From: Eledone cirrhosa
Taxonomy: Eukaryota
Direction of reading: 5' to 3'
DNA: 64,000 bases
Assembly (NCBI GenBank): GCA_964016885.1
Contig: OZ024757.1
Coordinates: 28,892,001 to 28,956,000 of the forward strand
Positions within the stretch are counted from its first letter, which is position 1. Every line of letters begins with the position of its first letter. Positions 3,989 to 61,403 of this stretch are shown here, piece after piece. Under the pieces are notes generated by a model. It was not told the DNA's origin. It made no database searches and saw only the letters and a program-made list of their open reading frames with translations. A program made the translations under genes and the position numbers.

Positions 3989-4071
<83 letters not shown>

Positions 4072-4112
4072 CGATATTAAACAAATGGAAATTACATTTA
4101 TAAAACCATATT

Positions 4113-4178
4113 TATTTCATTATATATATTTCAGGGATATCATATTAAAAATATGGTATGCCCTCTTCAGGTAAAATA
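4113..4178 (-). ncRNA. Type I hammerhead motif (long helix II class), partly decayed
   Basis: Minus strand: tattttac CUGAAGA gggcauacca..ugauaucccu GAAA uauaua UA augaaaua; first helix I pair is C.A. Confidence 0.65.
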
Positions 4179-4435
4179 CAATATATAGACAGCTTTATAA
4201 ATAAATTTGACATACCTTAGAGTTCACAACTTCCATTTAAAAAGTTGTTACGGTATATATATTGTTATAAAAGTTGTTATGGTATATATATATATATATA
4301 TATATATATGTAGGAGGTGAGTTTTATTGTAGTACAATAAAGCAATGCAGATATCGGATAAGAAGCACTCTACAGTTTGTAGGACTGGAGTATGCATAAT
4401 ATAAGATCAAAAGATGGTTAAAGGAGTTCCATGTA

Positions 4436-4502
4436 TTTTATTATGCGCATTTCAAAAACAAACATCATCATGCAATAATATTTGTGTTTTCATCAGATAA
4501 AA
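4436..4502 (-). ncRNA. Type I hammerhead ribozyme motif (long helix II class), intact core
   Basis: Minus strand: uuuuau CUGAUGA, helix II with 15 of 16 pairs, GAAA ugcgca UA auaaaa; perfect 6-bp helix I; palindromic UGCGCA. Confidence 0.82.
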
Positions 4503-4596
4503 CAGGAGAACATGATATGAAGGCTAAAAAACACTTGTGGATAGTGCAGTTTTAAATCTACATATATATATATATATATATATGTATCTATATATG

Positions 4597-4754: not shown

Positions 4755-5318
4755 CACACACACATAGATACCACATCAAGAATAAATAAATAACTAGATA
4801 AGTAAACAAAGGACAATCCAGAATGTCGATCTATTTTCCGGTAGATTTAAGGATTAGTGGTGTCAGGAAGACGGAAGTTTGTATTGGTTAGTGGAGGTGT
4901 ATGTTGGGTGTGTGTGTGTGTATGTGTGTATGTGTGTGTGTATGTGTGTGTGTGAGTGTGTGTGTGTGTGTGTATGTGAGTGTCTGTGTGAGTGTCTGTG
5001 TCTGTATCTGTGTGTGTGTGTGTGTGAGTGTATGTGTGAGTGTCTGTGTGTGTATCTGTGTGTCTGTGTGTGTGTATGTGTGTGTGTGAGTGTCTGTATG
5101 AGTGTCTGTGTGAGTGTATGTGTGAGTGTATGTCTGAGTGTATGTGTGAGTGTCTGTGTGAGTGTCTGTGTGTCTGTGTGTGTGTGTGTCTGTGTGAGTG
5201 TCTGTGAGTGTATGTGTGAGTCTCTGTGTGTGTATCTGTGTGTCTGTGTGTGTGTGTGTGTGTGAGAGTGTCTGTGTGAGTGTCTGTGTGTCTGTGTGTG
5301 TGTATGTCTGTGTCTGTA

Positions 5319-16455: not shown

Positions 16456-18294
16456 CCAACAACTACGACAGCCGCAACGATGTTAGCGTCTTTGATGCGG
16501 GATTTGGTGACGTCATTGCTAGAGTGAAACCAGAAACTGTAGAATATGCGCCATGTTTGTTGTACGAAGTACAAACATATGACGAGTCTTTGAGGTGTTT
16601 TCCGACAAAAAAAAAACACAACAAAAACAAAAACAAAATACACACAAAGCGATTCCATGTAGTTGCTCGATTAGCTAGAAATAGCAGCCAAATTCGCCTC
16701 AAATTATGTTCTCCTGTGTCTTTAAAAGAAATTCTAAAGGATATATTGGATAATGTAGTACTTGGCTTTACAAAAAAGTCGGGATGGTCACGATTGGAAC
16801 ACGACTTTGACCATGTATTGTATGCTGGGACAGGTTTTGCTGACCTGATGATTATATAACAATAATAACAACATCTATAATAACATCTGAACAACAATAG
16901 CAACATCTGTAACAACAATAACAACATCTGTAACAATAACATCTGTAACAACAATAGCAACATCTGTAATAACAATAACAACATCTGTAACAATAACATC
17001 TGTGACAACAATAACAACATCTGTAACAATAACATCTGTAACAACAATAGCAACATCTGTAATAACAATAACAACATCTGTAACAATAGCATCTGTATCA
17101 ACAATAGCAACATCTGTAACAATAACATCTGTAACAATAACATCTGTAACAATAACATCTGTATCAACAATGGCAACATCTGTAACAAAATTAATAACAA
17201 CATAACGACATCTGTAACAACAATAACGACACCCTTATCAACAACAACGACATCTGTAACAACAATAACAACATAACTACAAACGACATCAATAACAACA
17301 ACAGCAACAACGCTGTTGGACCTCCGTCTGTTGCGACGACTTGCGTAACACTTGTTTAAACAAGGGAACAGCCTACTCGTGAAATTAAAGTGCAAGCGAG
17401 TAAGTATTCCACAGACACATGTACCCTTCATATAGTTCTAAGGGAGATTCAGTATGATGCAGTGTTTGAGAAAGTTGACGCTTTGAACCCCAGGTGAATG
17501 GACCAGATCTACGTGTAAATAAAAAAAAAAACCTCTTTGTTTAAAGACACAATGCCCCATCCGGAACTGGATATGAACGCACGACCTTACGATCATGAAC
17601 TGAACACTCTAATTACAATTCTACGAACACACGCACCATTAACGTGGTTCTCAGGAGATTTTGCGTGACGCAGTGTTTGAGTCGGACCCGTCACCAACGC
17701 AGGGAAGAAGGGACGCACTGGAAGGTTCTGCCCCTCTCCTCTACGTTTCAAGGGTACATCCTCTGATTTAGAAAATCTAAGTTCGTTAAAAAAAAATTAA
17801 CCCCCCAAAAACCTACCCTGAAAATAGTTTCTTGCGAAATAGAGTTCCCACCAAAAGTCTTCTGAAGTCACCCCTGAGTACAACTTATTTTTTTGCCAGC
17901 TGAGTGGACTAAAGCAATGAGGAAATAAAGTGTCTTGCTCAAGGACAAAACACACAGCAAGAACAATATCAGGATATCTTGCCGGAGTATTGTATCAACA
18001 ACACGTCCACGCAATAACAGAGTTATGCACTTAAGTCTTCAAGGATCAGTAAGTCTCCCCTCTATCTTTATACATTAATTAATATATATATTTAATATAG
18101 AAATGGCTTCTACAGGACTAGAACTGTTTCATTCGGGAGAAATCATCAGCTTTCCTATATATATATATATATATATATATCCCCCCCCCCCCAAAAAAAA
18201 ATGTATGCACACTTCAACAGCATTCTAATAAATATTGCCTATACAGGTAATCAAAGTATGTATACATATTTTGGACACCCTGCATATATATATA

Positions 18295-19780: not shown

Positions 19781-19914
19781 ATATGTAGAAGTTATATTTA
19801 ATTTGTTGGGATACAACAAGCAAATATTTTTATAACTGATATAAAGCACTCAACAAATTTTTGGAGTAAAAACAATATTTTAACAAATGGAAACTATATT
19901 TATAAAATCATATT

Positions 19915-19979
19915 TATTTCATTATACATATTTCAAGGACACCAAAGCAAATTATAGTGCGCTTTCATCAGATAAAATA
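19915..19979 (-). ncRNA. Type I hammerhead motif in left arm of inverted repeat
   Basis: Minus strand: uauuuuau CUGAUGA aagcgcacua..uggugtccuu GAAA uaugua UA augaaaua. Confidence 0.75.
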
Positions 19980-20069
19980 TAATATAATCTAGATCCGGGA
20001 GCTTCCAACTGACATGGTTGCATTCTTTAAGGGTATGTCAATATTTGTTTATAAAACTGATCTATATTA

Positions 20070-20134
20070 TATTTTATCTAATGAAAGCGCACCATAATTT
20101 GCTTTGGTGTCCTTGAAATATGTATAATGAAATA
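20070..20134 (+). ncRNA. Hammerhead copy in right arm, core mutated (CUAAUGA)
   Basis: Mirror of 19915-19979 with G5 changed to A. Confidence 0.6.
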
Positions 20135-20176
20135 AATATGGTTTTATAAATATAGTTTCCATTTGTTAATATATTG

Positions 20177-20217
<41 letters not shown>

Positions 20218-26480: not shown

Positions 26481-26925
26481 AACTGTCGCTGCAGTGTCGA
26501 CCACCTTCCACGCCATGCTGCTCTCAATGGGGTCATAAAACATGACTTGGATGCTGCAGGCTTCCCCTCCCAGCCCCGGCGGGGCTGGACCGAGGGGACG
26601 GCATGACCATCACGAGGTGGCAAACTCCTCGTCCGAGATGCCACATGCAGCGACACATTCTCCAGCGGCAACCTGGTATAGTCTGCGATAAACTCAGGTT
26701 CTGCTGTACTTCGAGCTGAGGAAGGTAACATCTCCAAGTATCGGTCGCTCTCCGACAGGTTTGTAGTCGAGCCCCTAGCAGTGGAGACTTCTGGTATCCT
26801 TGACCCTAGAGCTACCTCACTACTTACCACCATAGGCGCTGAGCTGGCGAGCCGCAGATGATGGAATGGCTCTTCTCGCGCCTCTCCCTAACCATCCTCC
26901 AGGGAAACGCCTTCTCTATTGTCCG
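26481..26925 (+). mobile_element. CRE-like non-LTR retrotransposon 3' remnant (restriction-like endonuclease domain)
   Basis: RHAALN.VIK..L.AAG.PS, GLDRGDG, DATCSDT, KYRSL...EPLAVETSG, RLSLTILQGNA, with frameshifts and stops. Confidence 0.82.
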
Positions 26926-26949
26926 CAGAACAGGGTAAGGCGAGAGTAA

Positions 26950-29263
26950 TGGAGGCGATGACAGTGGGAGTTTGGTTCCTCTGTGTTCGGACCTGGTGTA
27001 CATGAGAGGTGAGGAGGGCGAGAGAGACAGAGACAATGACAGTGGGAGTTAGGCTCCTCTGTGTTCGGACCTGGTGTACATGAGAGGTGAGGAGGGCGAG
27101 AGAGACAGAAGCGATGACAGTGGGAGTTAGGCTCCTCTGTGTTCGGACCTGGTGTACATGAGAGGTGAGGAGGGCGAGAGAGACAGAGGCGATGACAGTG
27201 GGAGTTTGGTTCCTCTGTGTTCGGACCTGGTGTACATGAGAGGTGAGGAGGGCGAGAGAGACAGAGGCGATGACAGTGGGAGTTAGGCTCCTCTGTGTTC
27301 GGACCTGGTGTACATGAGAGGTGAAGAGGGCGAGAGAGACAGAGGCGATGACAGTGGGAGTTTGGTTCCTCTGTGTTCGGACCTGGTGTACATGAGAGGT
27401 GAGGAGGGCGAGAGAGACAGAGACAATGACAGTGGGAGTTAGGCTCCTCTGTGTTCGGACCTGGTGTACATGAGAGGTGAGGAGGGCGAGAGAGACAGAA
27501 GCGATGACAGTGGGAGTTAGGCTCCTCTGTGTTCGGACCTGGTGTACATGAGAGGTGAGGAGGGCGAGAGAAACAGAGACAATGACAGTGGGAGTTTGGT
27601 TCCTCTGTGTTCGGACCTGGTGTACATGAGAGGTGAGGAGGGCGAGAGAGACAGAGACAATGACAGTGGGAGTTCGGCTCCTCTGTGTTCGGACCTGGTG
27701 TACATGAGAGGTGAGGAGGGCGAGAGAGACAGAGGCGATGACAGTGGGAGTTTGGTTCCTCTGTGTTCGGACCTGGTGTACATGAGAGGTGAGGAGGGCG
27801 AGAGAAACAGAGACAATGACAGTGGGAGTTCGGCTCCTCTGTGTTCGGACCTGGTGTACATGAGAGGTGAGGAGGGCGAGAGAGACAGAGGCGATGACAG
27901 TGGGAGTTTGGTTCCTCTGTGTTCGGACCTGGTGTACATGAGAGGTGAGGAGGGCGAGAGAAACAGAGACAATGACAGTGGGAGTTCGGCTCCTCTGTGT
28001 TCGGACCTGGTGTACATGAGAGGTGAGGAGGGCGAGAGAGACAGAGGCGATGACAGTGGGAGTTTGGTTCCTCTGTGTTCGGACCTGGTGTACATGAGAG
28101 GTGAGGAGGGCGAGAGAGACAGAGACAATGACAGTGGGAGTTAGGCTCCTCTGTGTTCGGACCTGGTGTACATGAGAGGTGAGGAGGGCGAGAGAGACAG
28201 AAGCGATGACAGTGGGAGTTAGGCTCCTCTGTGTTCGGACCTGGTGTACATGAGAGGTGAGGAGGGCGAGAGAAACAGAGACAATGACAGTGGGAGTTTG
28301 GTTCCTCTGTGTTCGGACCTGGTGTACATGAGAGGTGAGGAGGGCGAGAGAAACAGAGACAATGACAGTGGGAGTTCGGCTCCTCTGTGTTCGGACCTGG
28401 TGTACATGAGAGGTGAGGAGGGCGAGAGAGACAGAAGCGATGACAGTGGGAGTTAGGCTCCTCTGTGTTCGGACCTGGTGTACATGAGAGGTGAGGAGGG
28501 CGAGAGAGACAGAGGCGATGACAGTGGGAGTTTGGTTCCTCTGTGTTCGGACCTGGTGTACATGAGAGGTGAGGAGGGCGAGAGAGACAGAGACAATGAC
28601 AGTGGGAGTTCGGCTCCTCTGTGTTCGGACCTGGTGTACATGAGAGGTGAGGAGGGCGAGAGAGACAGAGGCGATGACAGTGGGAGTTTGGTTCCTCTGT
28701 GTTCGGACCTGGTGTACATGAGAGATGAGGAGGGCGAGAGAAACAGAGACAATGACAGTGGGAGTTCGGCTCCTCTGTGTTCGGACCTGGTGTACATGAG
28801 AGGTGAGGAGGGCGAGAGAGACAGAGGCGATGACAGTGGGAGTTTGGTTCCTCTGTGTTCGGACCTGGTGTACATGAGAGGTGAGGAGGGCGAGAGAAAC
28901 AGAGACAATGACAGTGGGAGTTCGGCTCCTCTGTGTTCGGACCTGGTGTACATGAGAGGTGAGGAGGGCGAGAGAGACAGAGGCGATGACAGTGGGAGTT
29001 TGGTTCCTCTGTGTTCGGACCTGGTGTACATGAGAGGTGAGGAGGGCGAGAGAGACAGAGACAATGACAGTGGGAGTTCGGCTCCTCTGTGTTCGGACCT
29101 GGTGTACATGAGAGGTGAGGAGGGCGAGAGAGACAGAGGCGATGACAGTGGGAGTTTGGTTCCTCTGTGTTCGGACCTGGTGTACATGAGAGGTGAGGAG
29201 GGCGAGAGAGACAGAGGCGATGACAGTGGGAGTTAGGCTCCTCTGTGTTCGGACCTGGTGTAT
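26950..29263. repeat. 78-bp tandem array, ~30 copies
   Basis: gaggcgatgacagtgggagtttggttcctctgtgttcggacctggtgtacatgagaggtgaggagggcgagagagaca, with a few variant sites. Confidence 0.97.
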
Positions 29264-30312
29264 GTGCATGAACTCTGAACGTATGGCCCTTTACATTCTG
29301 AGTTCAAATCCCGCCGAGGTTAACTTTGCCTTTCATCCTTACGGGATCGATAAAATAAAGTACCAGTAATGCACTGGAGTAATTGCTGGCTTTGTGCCAA
29401 AAGTAGAAACAATTATTATTAACGTTATTGTTATATTCTATTTAGAATAATGGTTTCTTCTATAGACACAAGGCCAGTAATTTTGGAGGGAGGGGAAAGT
29501 CGATTAAATCGACCCTGGTACGTTACTGGTGTTTTATTTTATCGACCCCGGAAGGATGAAAGGCAAAGTTAACCTCGGCGGGATTTGAACTCAGACCGTA
29601 AAGAACCGTAACTCTATGCCGCAAAGCATGGCGTTCGACTCTCTACCGATACTGCCAATCCACTACCCTTTTTAGAATGTTAAATAATGCAAAATCTTAA
29701 AAAAAAAAAAAAAAATCCCCAAATAAATTCTAATCCTATATAGGTCGTGAGTGATATACTAGATGTTAACAAAATGGAAACACACGCAGTCTCGTGTCAC
29801 TGTACGATTGTTCCGTTAGCATCGTTTTCCAACTACTGGAAGCAGCTTATGTCTTTAGAACGCTTCCGTGTCATTTCTACACCATGGTGACGTTCTGGCG
29901 CGTTCATGATTATCACAGAAAGATGGTAAAGAAAGAAAACAAAACTAGACACACATGAACACAAAACTACTACTATTACTAGTTCTCAATCCACCACAGC
30001 TGCTGTTAATACCATAACCAATACCACCACTACCACCACTACTACCTCTACAGACGCCATATTGTCGTCTTTCGGCCAGTGAACCAATCTACGCACACAA
30101 AACAGTCGTAGAGGTCCATGGCTTGAGAAGAAGATCTGTGTAATGATCTTGTACCATCTTTTGGTTTGTTTGGTCTAGGGTGTCTTGAACACAACCATCA
30201 CTATTATCTACACCACCACCAGCATCACTATTATCTGTACTATCACCGCCGCCATCACACTTGAAAATGATGTATACTGTTTTCTGAAACATCTACTTAT
30301 TATGATGAGTAA

Positions 30313-34220: not shown

Positions 34221-34461
34221 ATGCATTCACCAACGTCGCTCGACACGATTCTATTCTCACCTCTCATCGAAGAATCAGAGTTTGACCCAATCAACATGGC
34301 ATTCAGTCTGGTCAATGGAGACGTCGACAGCGGGGTGGGCAACAAACTGGACTTCTACCCGGCCGTTGACGAGGAATACGAAAGCCGGCGGGCTGAGCAG
34401 CAAGCCGAGAGCTTGGTTCCATTGAAGGAAGACTTGGCCGATTGGCTACAGAGAATTCTGG
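34221..34461 (+). CDS. GAS2: GAS2-family protein, coding exon 1 (N-terminus and start of CH domain); exon acceptor at 34195/34196
   Basis: Polypyrimidine tract and cacag acceptor end at 34195; ATG at 34221; translation ...ESLVPLKEDLADWLQRIL matches the GAS2 CH start (EDLA.WL); donor G|gtaagt, phase 1. Confidence 0.88.
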
Positions 34462-34589
34462 GTAAGTCTGACGTTTTATATTACTGTAATGAATAAGGGC
34501 AGTGGTTCCCAAAGTGGGTTCTAAGGGTTCAGCAAAGGAGTGCCTGGTGTTCCGTGAAAAAGGGTAGAGGAGTTTATTTATATTACGAC

Positions 34590-35620
34590 CGGTCATGTCG
34601 ATGTCACGGCCAAAAACCCCCAGTCCACGCTGTAAAGTGGTCGTGTAGGTGTCACGACAAAAGTGCCCCAGTCCACGCTGTAAAGTGGTCGTGTAGGTGT
34701 CACGACAAAAGTGCCCCAGTCCACGCTGCAAAGTGGTCGTGTAGGTGTCACGACAAAAGCCCCCCCATTCTACGCTGTAAAGTGGTCGTGTAGGTGTCAC
34801 GACAAAAGCGCCCCAGTCCACGCTGCACAGTGGTCGTGTAGGTGTCACGACAAAAGTGCCCCAGTCCACGCTGCACAGTGGTCGTGTAGGTGTCACGACA
34901 AAAGCGCCCCAGTCTACGCTGTAAAGTGGTCGTGTAGGTGTCACGACAAAAGCCCCCCCCCCCAGTCCACGCGGCAAAGTGGTCGTGTAGGTGTCACGAC
35001 AAAAGTGCCCCAGTCCACGCTGCACAGTGGTCGTGTAGGTGTCACGACAAAAGCCCCCCAGTCTACGCTGTAAAGTGGTCGTGTAGGTGTCACGACAAAA
35101 GTGCCCCAGTCCACGCTGCAAAGTGGTCGTGTAGGTGTCACGACAAAAGTGCCCCAGTCCACGCGGCAAAGTGGTCGTGTAGGTGTCACGACAAAAGTGC
35201 CCCAGTCCACGCTGCAAAGTGGTCGTGTAGGTGTCACGACAAAAGTGCCCCAGTCCACGCTGCACAGTGGTCGTGTAGGTGTCACGACAAAAGTGCCCCA
35301 GTCCACGCTGCACAGTGGTCGTGTAGGTGTCACGACAAAAGCCCCCCCCCCCCCAGTCCACGCGGCAAAGTGGTCGTGTAGGTGTCACGACAAAAGTGCC
35401 CCAGTCCACGCTGCAAAGTGGTCGTGTAGGTGTCACGACAAAAGTGCCCCAGTCCACGCTGCAAAGTGGTCGTGTAGGTGTCACGACAAAAGCGCCCCAG
35501 TCCACGCTGCAAAGTGGTCGTGTAGGTGTCACGACAAAAGTGCCCCAGTCCACGCTGCAAAGTGGTCATGTAGGTGTCACGACAAAAGCCCTCCAGTCCA
35601 CGCGGCAAAGTGGTCGTGGA
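34590..35620 (+). repeat. 48-bp tandem array (~21 copies), each unit with a hairpin
   Basis: aagtg gtcgtg taggtgt cacgac aaaagtgccccagtccacgctgca. Confidence 0.95.
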
Positions 35621-35805
35621 GGCGGCACGGCAAAGGGCACCCAGCACACACTGTAAATGTGGTTAGTGTTAGGAAGGACAACCAGCTGTAGAAACCACGC
35701 TAAAATCAGTTCTGTATGAGCACTGGCTTGTCTCACAATTGGAGAACTTGTTTAACCCATGCTAGTGTGGGGAAAATGGACGTTAAACGGTGATGATGAT
35801 GATAT
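35620..35805 (+). mobile_element. RTE-tailed SINE 3' part (also 54140-54410 -, 41960-42058, 62805-62900, 19380-19470 -)
   Basis: TAGGAAGG.CA.CCAGCTGTAGAAACC...TAACCCATGCTAG...GGACGTTAAACG(ATG)n tail shared with the RTE at 18295. Confidence 0.7.
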
Positions 35806-37580: not shown

Positions 37581-37660
37581 GTATCTCATCTGATGAAAGT
37601 ATGCTCTGATTTATGTTAAACATAAATTTTTGCATCCTCGAAATATATATAATGAAATAT
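37581..37660 (+). ncRNA. Type I hammerhead motif in intron 2 (sense), first helix II pair A.C
   Basis: guaucucau CUGAUGA aaguaugc..gcauccuc GAAA uauaua UA augaaauau; helix I has 8 of 9 pairs. Confidence 0.72.
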
Positions 37661-42054: not shown

Positions 42055-42093
<39 letters not shown>

Positions 42094-42251
42094 ATACTTT
42101 GGGAGGGTCATGTTGCCAATAAGAAACACACGCACCAGTTGCTTTCACTTCAATTTATTATATATTTATAAATTTATAAATTTACAAATCTACAAACTTA
42201 TAAATTTCTGGTTGGTTGGTTGGTTCCACAACCAGATAGTTGTTTATATAT

Positions 42252-42296
42252 AGTCATAGTCCTTTCGTCACACACTCTGTGACCTCTTCAGTGACT
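42252..42296 (-). ncRNA. Minimal type I hammerhead (left arm of 242-bp inverted repeat)
   Basis: Reverse complement of 42624-42668. Confidence 0.78.
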
Positions 42297-42623
42297 GGGG
42301 ATTCCTTTCTTTGTTTCTGTGCCTTTCCTTTCTTCTATCCTATGCCATTTTGTTTCTGTGTGTGTGTTGTGTGCTCAGTTTGCGCATGCGCCACATCCGG
42401 GTGTCTGTGTGTGTTTGTGTTCATTTATCTATTTGTTTATTTATTTATTTATTTATTGTTGGTTGGTTGTTTGTTCTATGTGTGTGTGTGTTTTCATTTT
42501 GTCCTGTGTGTGTTTTCATTTTGTCCTTAATTGTAAGTTGTTTGTTCTATGTGTGTGTGTGTTTTCATTTTGTCCTGTGTGTGTTTTCATTTGAAAGGCA
42601 CAGAAACAAAGAAAGGAATCCCC

Positions 42624-42668
42624 AGTCACTGAAGAGGTCACAGAGTGTGTGACGAAAGGACTATGACT
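42624..42668 (+). ncRNA. Minimal type I hammerhead (right arm of 242-bp inverted repeat)
   Basis: aguca CUGAAGA g gucaca gagug ugugac GAAA ggac UA ugacu; extra nt after A9 and minimal helix III, as in Penelope hammerheads. Confidence 0.78.
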
Positions 42669-43076
42669 ATATATAAACAACTATCTGGTTGTGGAACCAA
42701 CCAACCAACCAGAAATTTATAAGTTTGTAGATTTGTAAATTTATAAATTTATAAATATATAATAAATTGAAGTGAAAGCAACTGGTGCGTGTGTTTCTTA
42801 TTGGCAACATGACCCTCCCAAAGTATAACAATATCGGTTTCAACACACGATTTCAGATAAAGAATCTTGCTAAACAAATTCAGAAACGAAATATATATAT
42901 ATAGTTATGTAATAAACAACATAAGGCAATTATTTCATTTACCAGTGGTTTATATATATATATTGTCTAACCTAGAAATGATGATCAATTTTAATTAAGA
43001 AGATAATTTGTTGGTTAATTGCTAATTTAATTAATCAAATTATTTGTATATCTTTCTTTATATCTTTTCCATACAG

Positions 43077-44071
43077 TGTGCCATAGACAAGAAAAACCAG
43101 TGGTTGTATGTTTACTGGAACTTGCAAGAATTGGATACAAATTTGGGATGGAATCACCGAGTATTATCAACATCGAAAAAGAAATTGAACAAGAGGAAAG
43201 CGAGTTGGCCTCTCAGATCAACGAAGATGAAATCCAGAACCTCAACGAAATGGGCAGCCTGAAATTAGCCATGGAGTCGGTGGCCACACAAGTAAGCAGG
43301 ACGTCTTCAATGGAAACGAATACAGGAGCGGCCAACCAAAACGAGGCTTCCGAAAATGAAGCAGCAGGCAGTCGTAAGACGACTGCTGATGGCGGAGAAG
43401 AAGCAGATGATGAGAGGGAAGGTGATGCTGAAGGGGAAATAAAACACCACGGTCAAAGAAGGGTCATTTCTGTGACTAAGAGCGAAGAGAAAATGCATGA
43501 GGTGCCGATTCAGAAGCACAAACAAAGCAGTCGCTCCATGTCGGAAAATGAGAGTGACAGAAGATGTCACAGCATCAATGGTGAGAGAGAGGAGGATAAG
43601 AAAGAGGAGAAGAAGGAAGAAGAAGAAAAAGAAGAAGAAGAAGAAGAAGAAGAAGAAGAGAAGGAAGAGGGCGAGGACGGTGGAGAAGAGGAAGGGGAAG
43701 AAGGAGAGGGAGAAGAGACCGCAGAGAAGGACGACGGGAAAGATTCGATGATGCTGAACGGAGAGGACGACTTTACGCAGTCGAACGAAGGCATCGTGTC
43801 GGAAAGAGAGGAAGAAGGCGATGAGGACGAACAGGACACAAACGCCAGCCACGCCACCGAGAGCACGTCAGCGTATGAAGAGGAATGTAACACGAGACTT
43901 AACTGTACGCTGGAGGACATTGAGGAGAATGATACCGAAGCTGACAGCACCGATGCTAAAACACCAAGCAGTCCCATGAGGAACGACGTTGGTGGGCAGT
44001 TTCACAGGAAGGCCCTCAATACTCCGCAAGCTCGCATAGACAACATCAAAGCCAGACAACTTGACAAAAAG
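43077..44071 (+). CDS. GAS2: GAS2-family protein, coding exon 4 (end of CH domain, long acidic linker, start of GAR)
   Basis: atacag acceptor; (V)CHRQEKPVVVCLLELARIG...IEKEIEQEE, then an E/D-rich linker ending RQLDKK; donor AAG|gtaatg; 995 nt open; phase 1 to 0. Confidence 0.9.
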
Positions 44072-44322
44072 GTAATGTGGTTCACTTATCTGTTTTTGTT
44101 GATGCTGTTCCACCTATTTTGCTTTTTTTGACAAAAGACTAAGCCACTGCTGGGTTCAATACTTATCTTGCTATGAAACACTGTCATTGCGACCTTGGGC
44201 CAGTACTCGACACAGTGCAGTGCATGTATTATTAACAAAAGGGGCCGAAGCCTCGCACCTCATATTAAGTGCTAGTTACTCTGCCCATAGCAAATGCGGT
44301 GAATGTTTATTATTACACACAG

Positions 44323-48557: not shown

Positions 48558-48628
48558 CCTGTTATACATATTTCGAAGACATCAAAGTGGTTGCATAATA
48601 ACCCTTAGACATGTTCTCTTCAGACAGA
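48558..48628 (-). ncRNA. Type I hammerhead ribozyme motif (long helix II class), intact core
   Basis: Minus strand: ucugu CUGAAGA gaacauguc..gaugucuuc GAAA uaugua UA acagg; G10.1-C11.1 retained. Confidence 0.8.
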
Positions 48629-57248: not shown

Positions 57249-57420
57249 TTCACGTATTTTTGACTAAAGGAATTTTAGCCTGATAATGAGGTTTAGAACC
57301 CTCAGATAAATGAGGGTTCTAAACCCCATTATCAGGCTAAAATTCCTTTAGTCAAAAATACGGTGAAAGCTATTCTATTTTCTAATTTCAAACCTGCTCA
57401 CCGTTTCAAAACATACTTTA
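57247..57420. mobile_element. Near-perfect 58-bp foldback with one-sided extension in (TA)n (Penelope-like remnant)
   Basis: Arms 57247-57304 and 57311-57369 with a 6-nt loop; single-arm copy near 59900-59970. Confidence 0.55.
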
Positions 57421-61329: not shown

Positions 61330-61403
61330 TCACAACACATGTTTCAATAAGTGATAGATCGATTGTGAAGCCATGATTGATTATCACTGATCTCATCAGG
61401 TGA
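61330..61403 (-). ncRNA. Type I hammerhead motif (long helix II class)
   Basis: Minus strand: ucac CUGAUGA gaucagugaua..uaucacuuauu GAAA caugug UU guga; lies in an element with inverted arms 61284-61346 and 61407-61467. Confidence 0.75.

Follow-up and report, generated by a model that had tools for sequence, protein, structure and literature searches.

Why would a hammerhead ribozyme keep one pair of a long helix open? This question is raised by a 64,000-nucleotide stretch of the Eledone cirrhosa genome (referred to below as the window), in which a preliminary description had pointed out seven hammerhead copies with divergent helices, each with a pyrimidine-pyrimidine (Y.Y) mismatch at the fourth pair of helix II (pair 4) and a palindromic or nearly palindromic hexamer closing helix III. 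What kind of element carries these motifs? How invariant is the mismatch outside the window? Was it passively inherited or is it maintained? What might an unpaired base do in such a ribozyme?

Hammerheads of the window and the element that carries them

All seven named copies have a CUGANGA core, a long helix II, GAAA-N6-UH and helix I, and their hexamers and mismatches are as first described: pair 4 is C.C at 4113, 19915 and 48558, C.U at 4436 and 61330, and U.C at 37581 and 57773. CUGANGA, GAAA and UH lie around three helices with helix I open, which is the type I layout. The motifs are not products of chance, since 100 dinucleotide-block shuffles of the window yielded a mean of 0.02 core matches and none with a helix. 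The count of seven omitted an eighth copy with a broken core, at 20078 on the plus strand. The copies, and the parts of the one at 4436, are as follows.

4308..4565, minus strand: 3′ end of a family A, 5′-truncated Hydra-clade Penelope-like element, 258 bp, with (TA)n on both flanks
4434..4504, minus strand: type I hammerhead of the 4436 copy (sequence and predicted fold)
4504-4497 with 4441-4434, minus strand: its helix I, 8 bp
4496-4490, minus strand: its core, CUGAUGA
4489-4454, minus strand: its helix II
4457..4486, minus strand: its pair 4 in helix II, C4486 (the conserved unpaired C) opposite U4457
4453-4450, minus strand: its GAAA
4449-4444, minus strand: its hexamer, UGCGCA
4443-4442, minus strand: its UA, with the predicted cut between 4442 and 4441
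4443..4450, minus strand: its self-complementary octamer, AUGCGCAU
4121..4170, minus strand: family B hammerhead in an element at about 4068-4255; pair 4 is C.C and helix I has a broken first pair
19923..19971, minus strand: hammerhead of family C with C.C, on the left arm of two inverted 3′ ends
20078..20126, plus strand: right arm of the 19785-20178 inverted pair, C.C, core mutated to CUAAUGA
37590..37651, plus strand: B-type copy in decay, with A.C at pair 1 and U.C at pair 4; its relative L074 has C
48563..48623, minus strand: hammerhead of another lineage, C.C, helix II of 42 nt; relative in L405
57781..57827, plus strand: D-type copy in decay, with A.A at pair 1 and, through CpG decay, U.C at pair 4
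61334..61399, minus strand: family H hammerhead, C.U, hexamer CAUGUG

The element end at 4308..4565 consists of 69 nt upstream of the ribozyme, the ribozyme and a terminal tail, and is 97.3% identical to the pLTR of a full element (L037). The 4436 copy matches the intact element L031 at 99.6% over 283 nt and is near-pristine, as the preliminary description had judged; the same rank had been given to the copy at 48558, which is equalled by that at 19915 (helix I of 8 bp in the 19915 copy versus 5 bp in the 48558 copy). The inverted pair of 3′ ends spans about 19785-20178 with the long tail on its left arm (19923..19971), and upstream of the hammerhead at 61334..61399 lies an inverted repeat of that copy's own 3′ end. 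By sequence comparison, the two U.C copies are cases of C-to-T decay, because other copies of their families carry C. The seven copies belong to one transposon clade and do not represent independent origins.

Almost certainly, the motif is the hammerhead that a Penelope-like element (PLE) of the Hydra clade carries in its terminal repeat. The hammerhead architecture and the PLE context proposed earlier are both supported, and intact copies have a linked open reading frame (ORF) with reverse transcriptase (RT) and GIY-YIG parts. In L037 two hammerhead motifs stand as direct repeats on either side of the ORF (pLTR-ORF-pLTR), and in L031 an inverted truncated copy lies ahead of an 821-codon open frame. 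Intact frames of 775-821 amino acids, flanked by the same helix II sequence as the window motif, carry RWT/RWI, DKT, CxCx5C, CxxC and CxH (in L031, RWT, DKT, CNCRIKNKC, CNLC and CLH). Alignment with 12 homologues places RT and, at the C terminus, a GIY-YIG-type endonuclease in a single ORF in L031 and L037, the domains being named by comparison with motifs in the accessible text of PMC8557442. Section 11 of that paper gives an RWK-type motif, DKT, a CxCx5C linker, CxxC, CxH and (TA)n targeting as marks of the Hydra clade; L031 has the protein marks, and insertion into (TA)n is seen. The clade assignment is based on these protein motifs and (TA)n, the trees being composed of sequences from this genome and homologues. 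Database searches with the ORF protein found 18 homologues at 29-38% identity; the Pfam search named no family and the PDB sequence search gave no match.

The copies also have PLE anatomy, with partial pLTR tandems (219 tandem junctions), inverted 5′-truncated copies, and a one-sided tail of about 85-90 nt confined to one arm of the inverted pairs. Inverted pairs with a tail on a single arm are the typical PLE insertion pattern. The host genome is 3.0 Gb in size and rich in microsatellites. The Naiad clade is excluded as the source by the C-terminal endonuclease and the presence of hammerheads, and a non-LTR retrozyme by the nature of the copies, which derive from coding elements as truncated ends and inverted pairs.

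Several further observations concern these elements and their surroundings. Solo copies of family A (window 4565; L013, L027) share a start at CATAT, 69 nt upstream of the core, which may be a truncation hot spot or mark a short non-autonomous unit. A GAGYRCT motif at window 4363-4369 (minus strand) recurs in several lineages, where it lies downstream of the cut site at a distance of 65-107 nt (families A-C: 71-73 nt); sister families carry it too, and it is a possible conserved tail signal. At L037:5125-5420, run X4, which is another sample, differs by A>G and T>C within the hammerhead and close to it (at 5260, 5265-5269, 5304, 5315, 5318 and 5351); such differences are almost missing from run X1, a hint of A-to-I editing of both strands. 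The window also holds a near-perfect 110-bp inverted repeat (57253-57362), a 366-codon open frame rich in acidic residues (43031-44128, plus strand), possibly an exon of a host gene, and two minisatellite arrays (26891-29303 and 34315-35688) with long open frames on both strands.

Pair 4 across the genome and among lineages

The genome was searched with a pattern blind to pair 4 (core, 24-50 nt, GAAA, YRYRYR, UH). It gave 98,071 matches, against 3,445 for the reversed control, a figure that counts only alternating-hexamer designs with a helix II of 24-50 nt and leaves other designs outside. Pair 4 is Y.Y in 94,088 of the matches (control 101); C.Y makes up 91,280 (93.1%; control 4) and U.Y, by subtraction, 2,808. 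Y.R was found 2,005 times versus 3,178 in the control, which here is not a clean background. C-G amounts to 503 matches (0.5%; control 61), mostly scattered single changes in every family plus the small, old M lineage, and 1,978 matches, by subtraction and with chance matches included, have a purine on the 5′ side. Pair 4 is therefore not mostly Watson-Crick in this genome, and a fixed mismatch stands as claimed; strict Y.Y does not, the Y.R matches including two subfamilies with C.A. The rule is "unpaired C", not "Y.Y", because C.A subfamilies exist and the U.C copies of the window come from families with C. Some single inverted insertions carry C-G in both of their arms, which means that C-G can be copied at least once or else arises by conversion. 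A pattern scan of metagenomes returned at least 116 stretches, and among the 80 examined none had a helix II and none a PLE ORF, a result with little bearing on other animals.

Because a few expansions dominate the copy counts, one copy was taken from each of 15 lineages, omitting M and a lineage known from a single U.U copy. Pair 4 is C.C in 11, C.U in two and C.A in two, is paired in none, and has C as its 5′ base in all 15; its position is fixed while helix II ranges from 24 to 47 nt. Pairs 2, 3, 6, 7 and 8 are paired in 15, 15, 14, 13 and 13 of the 15 lineages, with several pair types, against shuffle means of 11.3, 6.7, 8.8, 9.5 and 6.2 (the shuffles ignore kinship), so that the reported covariation of neighbouring pairs holds for pairs 2, 3 and 6-8, whereas pairs 1 and 5 do no better than shuffles. 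By the same measure, which ignores kinship, helices I and II covary. The first position of helix II is paired in 12 of 15 lineages, and the second pair is A-U in seven, G-C in four, G.U in three and C-G in one. A wider set of 26 representatives, which includes copies fetched as exceptions, has C.C 14 times, C.U and C.A five times each, and U-A and U.C once each at pair 4. On the sense strand of this set G.U outnumbers A.C by 17 to 3, an excess that indicates sense RNA.

How old is the mismatch? The endonucleases linked to mismatch motifs (nine pieces) are 39-75% identical, and in a tree of these nine rows with four control families and ten homologues they form one side of a branch with 94/93 support, not starred. 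The mismatch probably arose once and was then kept for a long time, during which the paired positions around it turned over. Selection on the unpaired C is fairly likely, because the C was retained through this turnover (as gauged by shuffles that ignore kinship). At the partner position only 2-3 C-to-A changes have become fixed, so the missing fixed G is not significant on its own.

The mismatch is not universal, and related Hydra-type families have a paired pair 4. The sister families L311 and L312 have intact ORFs, a long, fully paired helix II and a 7-nt helix III insert. L400 is an intact pLTR-ORF-pLTR element with a CACGUG hexamer and G.U at pair 4; it falls at the base of the mismatch group in an unresolved position, and once it is included the tree does not resolve that group as one side (38% of bootstrap trees).

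L400:549-652 and about 4166-4270: the L400 hammerheads, whose helix II is unusually long (about 80 nt)

The M lineage, with C-G at pair 4, has 34 strict matches. The ORF behind one M copy is F-like in a quick tree, and this copy is probably chimeric, because M's own tail is not continued by that ORF; 20 stretches upstream of M copies contained no linked ORF.

Other hammerhead designs were seen as well. Head-to-tail arrays of 3.5 kb at L341 and L350 (C1:91472500-91482400 and C1:437199300-437209200, G000) contain an intact Hydra-type element whose hammerhead has the core UUGAGAA (a U3-A8 swap); its helix II is bulged, and its long helix III ends in the palindrome UGAGCUCA. At L343:1137-3275 and flanks (G000:C7:5917500-5923000), an intact Hydra-type ORF has a terminal hammerhead with the core CAGAAGA (U4 to A), in which U.U is followed by a helix II of 3 bp and helix III is longer. 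The window itself holds, at 42056-42911, two inverted copies of a hammerhead of another kind (minus strand at 42291, plus strand at 42629; relatives in L017, L018 and L397) with an unpaired G, a perfect 6-bp helix II and a 2-bp helix III, which is of the conventional minimal PLE type. Short-helix hammerhead-like motifs at 18149 (minus) and 49668 (plus), starting with UUUC and ending with GAAU, resemble in appearance the M lineage and a 312-bp tandem repeat of L338.

Relation to known hammerheads

The comparison with Rfam gave no match at the gathering score in eight loci holding these motifs; in a scan of the window no hammerhead was among the best 150 of 389 matches, those listed being microsatellite-driven miRNA matches. 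Cervera and De la Pena (2014; PMC4209133) described PLE hammerheads with a long helix II (7-8 bp), a palindromic loop III and a dimer model. The present motifs share with these minimal hammerheads the type I layout, pLTR location, long helix II, palindromic loop III, and the thousands of solo copies and opposite-strand pairs per genome. They differ in copy number (about 98,000 matches versus up to about 9,000) and at the start of helix II, where the published consensus has an unpaired base between A9 and G10.1-C11.1 and the first position is usually paired here. In Fig. S3 of that paper, pair-4 mismatches appear in the single rows Clonorchis 2 (U.U) and Strongylocentrotus 1 (C.A), 2/56 when counted by eye in a shifted register.

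Closer relatives are the Hydra-clade hammerheads of Craig et al. (2021; PMC8557442, File S2), which share the host elements, the near-3′ location, insertion into (TA)n, a first helix II pair that varies (G-C, G.U, U.U) and a short quasi-palindromic helix III. Their helix II has 3-7 bp, in contrast to 24-47 nt here, and their helix III insert is mostly an odd-length C-N5-G, not an alternating YRYRYR hexamer. In our own count of File S2, none of 25 families (one with only 3 bp) has a pair-4 mismatch inside a continuing helix, and 15 of the 25 motifs have a G-paired C at position 4. The occurrence of this C, G-paired, in both the published motifs and the M lineage means that the C outlasts its pairing state. 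The Anolis Poseidon PLE (Frangieh et al., 2024; PMC11167929) likewise has a pLTR hammerhead, a tail defined by two 3′ ends and insertion of uncut RNA; it belongs to a different clade, and for it help from a protein has been measured. Canonical metazoan type I hammerheads and those of non-LTR retrozymes share the core and the dimer through a palindromic helix III, whereas their helix II has 4 bp with a loop that docks on helix I, and they lie in short tandem non-coding repeats, unlike the Eledone motifs, which lie in coding retrotransposons and their truncated ends.

Is this, then, an undescribed subtype, as had been suggested? The long helix II, palindromic loop III, dimer model and a U.U first pair are already published for PLE hammerheads, and close relatives do without the mismatch; the fixed mismatch itself lies beyond the Rfam gathering score and the accessible published tables. 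A conserved pair-4 mismatch was found neither in the accessible text of the PLE hammerhead literature (PMC4209133, PMC8557442, PMC11167929, PMC6765202, PMC3088659, PMC6155905, PMC13282606 and bioRxiv 10.64898/2026.07.22.740005) nor by literature searches, and the variants of Lunse et al. (2017) might already include the form. The motif is a real and very abundant structural variant of the known PLE hammerhead; conservation of its unpaired C is well supported, and the function of that C is putative.

What the unpaired C may do

In the predicted monomer fold of the 4436 copy, helix III has a pair probability of 0.0. Between two copies, AUGCGCAU is predicted to form an 8-bp duplex of -10.5 kcal/mol, present in the minimum-energy fold of the dimer, and U/A-rich hexamer duplexes reach only -2 to -3 kcal/mol; on these predictions the palindromic helix III is suited to dimer folding, as had been proposed. 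Compared with C-G, the pair-4 mismatch has a predicted cost of 3.6-6.7 kcal/mol, and in the 4436 copy the pairing of pairs 1-3, about 0.5 with the mismatch, would exceed 0.9 after repair to C-G. Despite the mismatch, the proximal pairs of helix II are predicted to form (0.86-0.99) in three families, B, E and F. Among 26 representatives no conserved helix I base able to pair with the unpaired C was found, nor any conserved or covarying base for an alternative pairing of helix II with the hexamer.

Does the genome record cleavage? At 70 examined tandem junctions of the 219, the upstream copy runs through the ribozyme in 49 cases, starts at the cut site in one and starts downstream of it in 20. 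There is thus no pile-up of genomic 5′ ends at the cut site, and at these junctions cleavage-defined 5′ ends are rejected as a signal. In the anole PLE, the hammerhead needs the element's protein in order to cut, and insertion mainly uses uncut RNA (PMC11167929). A model may be outlined as follows: the ribozyme would be off as a monomer, with helix III forming only between two copies through the alternating octamer. Cutting would be conditional, because every genomic copy with an intact motif would have been reverse-transcribed from uncut RNA. By analogy with the anole PLE, the switch might combine dimer pairing with help from a protein, and the free C might offer a docking place for that protein or for the partner ribozyme.

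Our best explanation, to which we give nearly an even chance, is that the mismatch is a shared trait of the branch kept by selection as a base-specific contact in a ribozyme predicted to be off as a monomer. The contact-site mechanism for the unpaired C, taken by itself and judged from sequence, is put slightly lower, and the partner in such a contact would most likely be the element's own RT-endonuclease protein. A base-specific contact is favoured on three grounds: the constancy of the C, the variation of its partner and the frequent presence of C at this place in published Hydra motifs. It is preferred, in this order, to the mismatch acting as a brake, to simple inheritance and to a role in DNA. 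A brake would weaken the three core-adjacent pairs and leave the 3′ copy uncut until reverse transcription has passed. The predicted gain in stability on C-G repair, with the firmer pairs 1-3 of the 4436 copy, agrees with this, as do the upstream copies that were copied through the site uncut (49/70), the mainly uncut RNA inserted by the anole PLE (PMC11167929), and a partner base that varies among C, U and A. However, U.U, U.C or a mismatch at another position should also be acceptable in a brake, yet all 15 lineages have C as the 5′ base, and in families B, E and F the mismatch is not predicted to keep the proximal pairs from forming; we consider it unlikely.

Inheritance of a tolerated ancestral accident, in which the G of a C-G pair was lost a single time and repair never followed, is rather improbable. 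In its favour, the mismatch falls within one clade of the endonuclease tree; C-G stands here in most published Hydra motifs (PMC8557442, File S2), repair takes one specific transversion, and the sister families L311, L312 and L400 manage without a mismatch. Against these points, the paired neighbours have turned over, with double transversions at pairs 3, 6 and 8 among the changes, while the unpaired C has not undergone the common C-to-U change in any of the 15 lineages, across families with 39-65% protein identity. The conserved base might instead act in DNA or cDNA, in a pLTR promoter or in recognition by the endonuclease or for second-strand synthesis, the hammerhead fold being incidental. 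The motif does lie inside the pLTR, the described site of PLE promoters (PMC6765202); but what is conserved is a single base whose neighbours covary as RNA pairs, and the excess of G.U over A.C is that of a sense RNA, which leaves this reading very little weight.

A stronger form of the contact reading, in which the C docks the RT-endonuclease or the second ribozyme of a dimer and thereby switches on cleavage, would make this a protein- or partner-gated hammerhead subtype. We regard it as doubtful; if it were true, its signature would have spread to about 90,000 sites in one animal genome. Why PLE hammerheads barely self-cut, and what their role is, are open questions on which the clade bears. 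It forms a hammerhead class of about 98,000 sites missed by Rfam cut-offs in the eight loci tested, and a natural mutagenesis set, in which at least 15 lineages share one fixed unpaired base and C-G, C.A and G.U occur as natural variants. The same genome also holds intact protein partners, along with sister families whose hammerheads are built differently, and with this set of natural variants protein assistance and dimer cleavage become directly testable.
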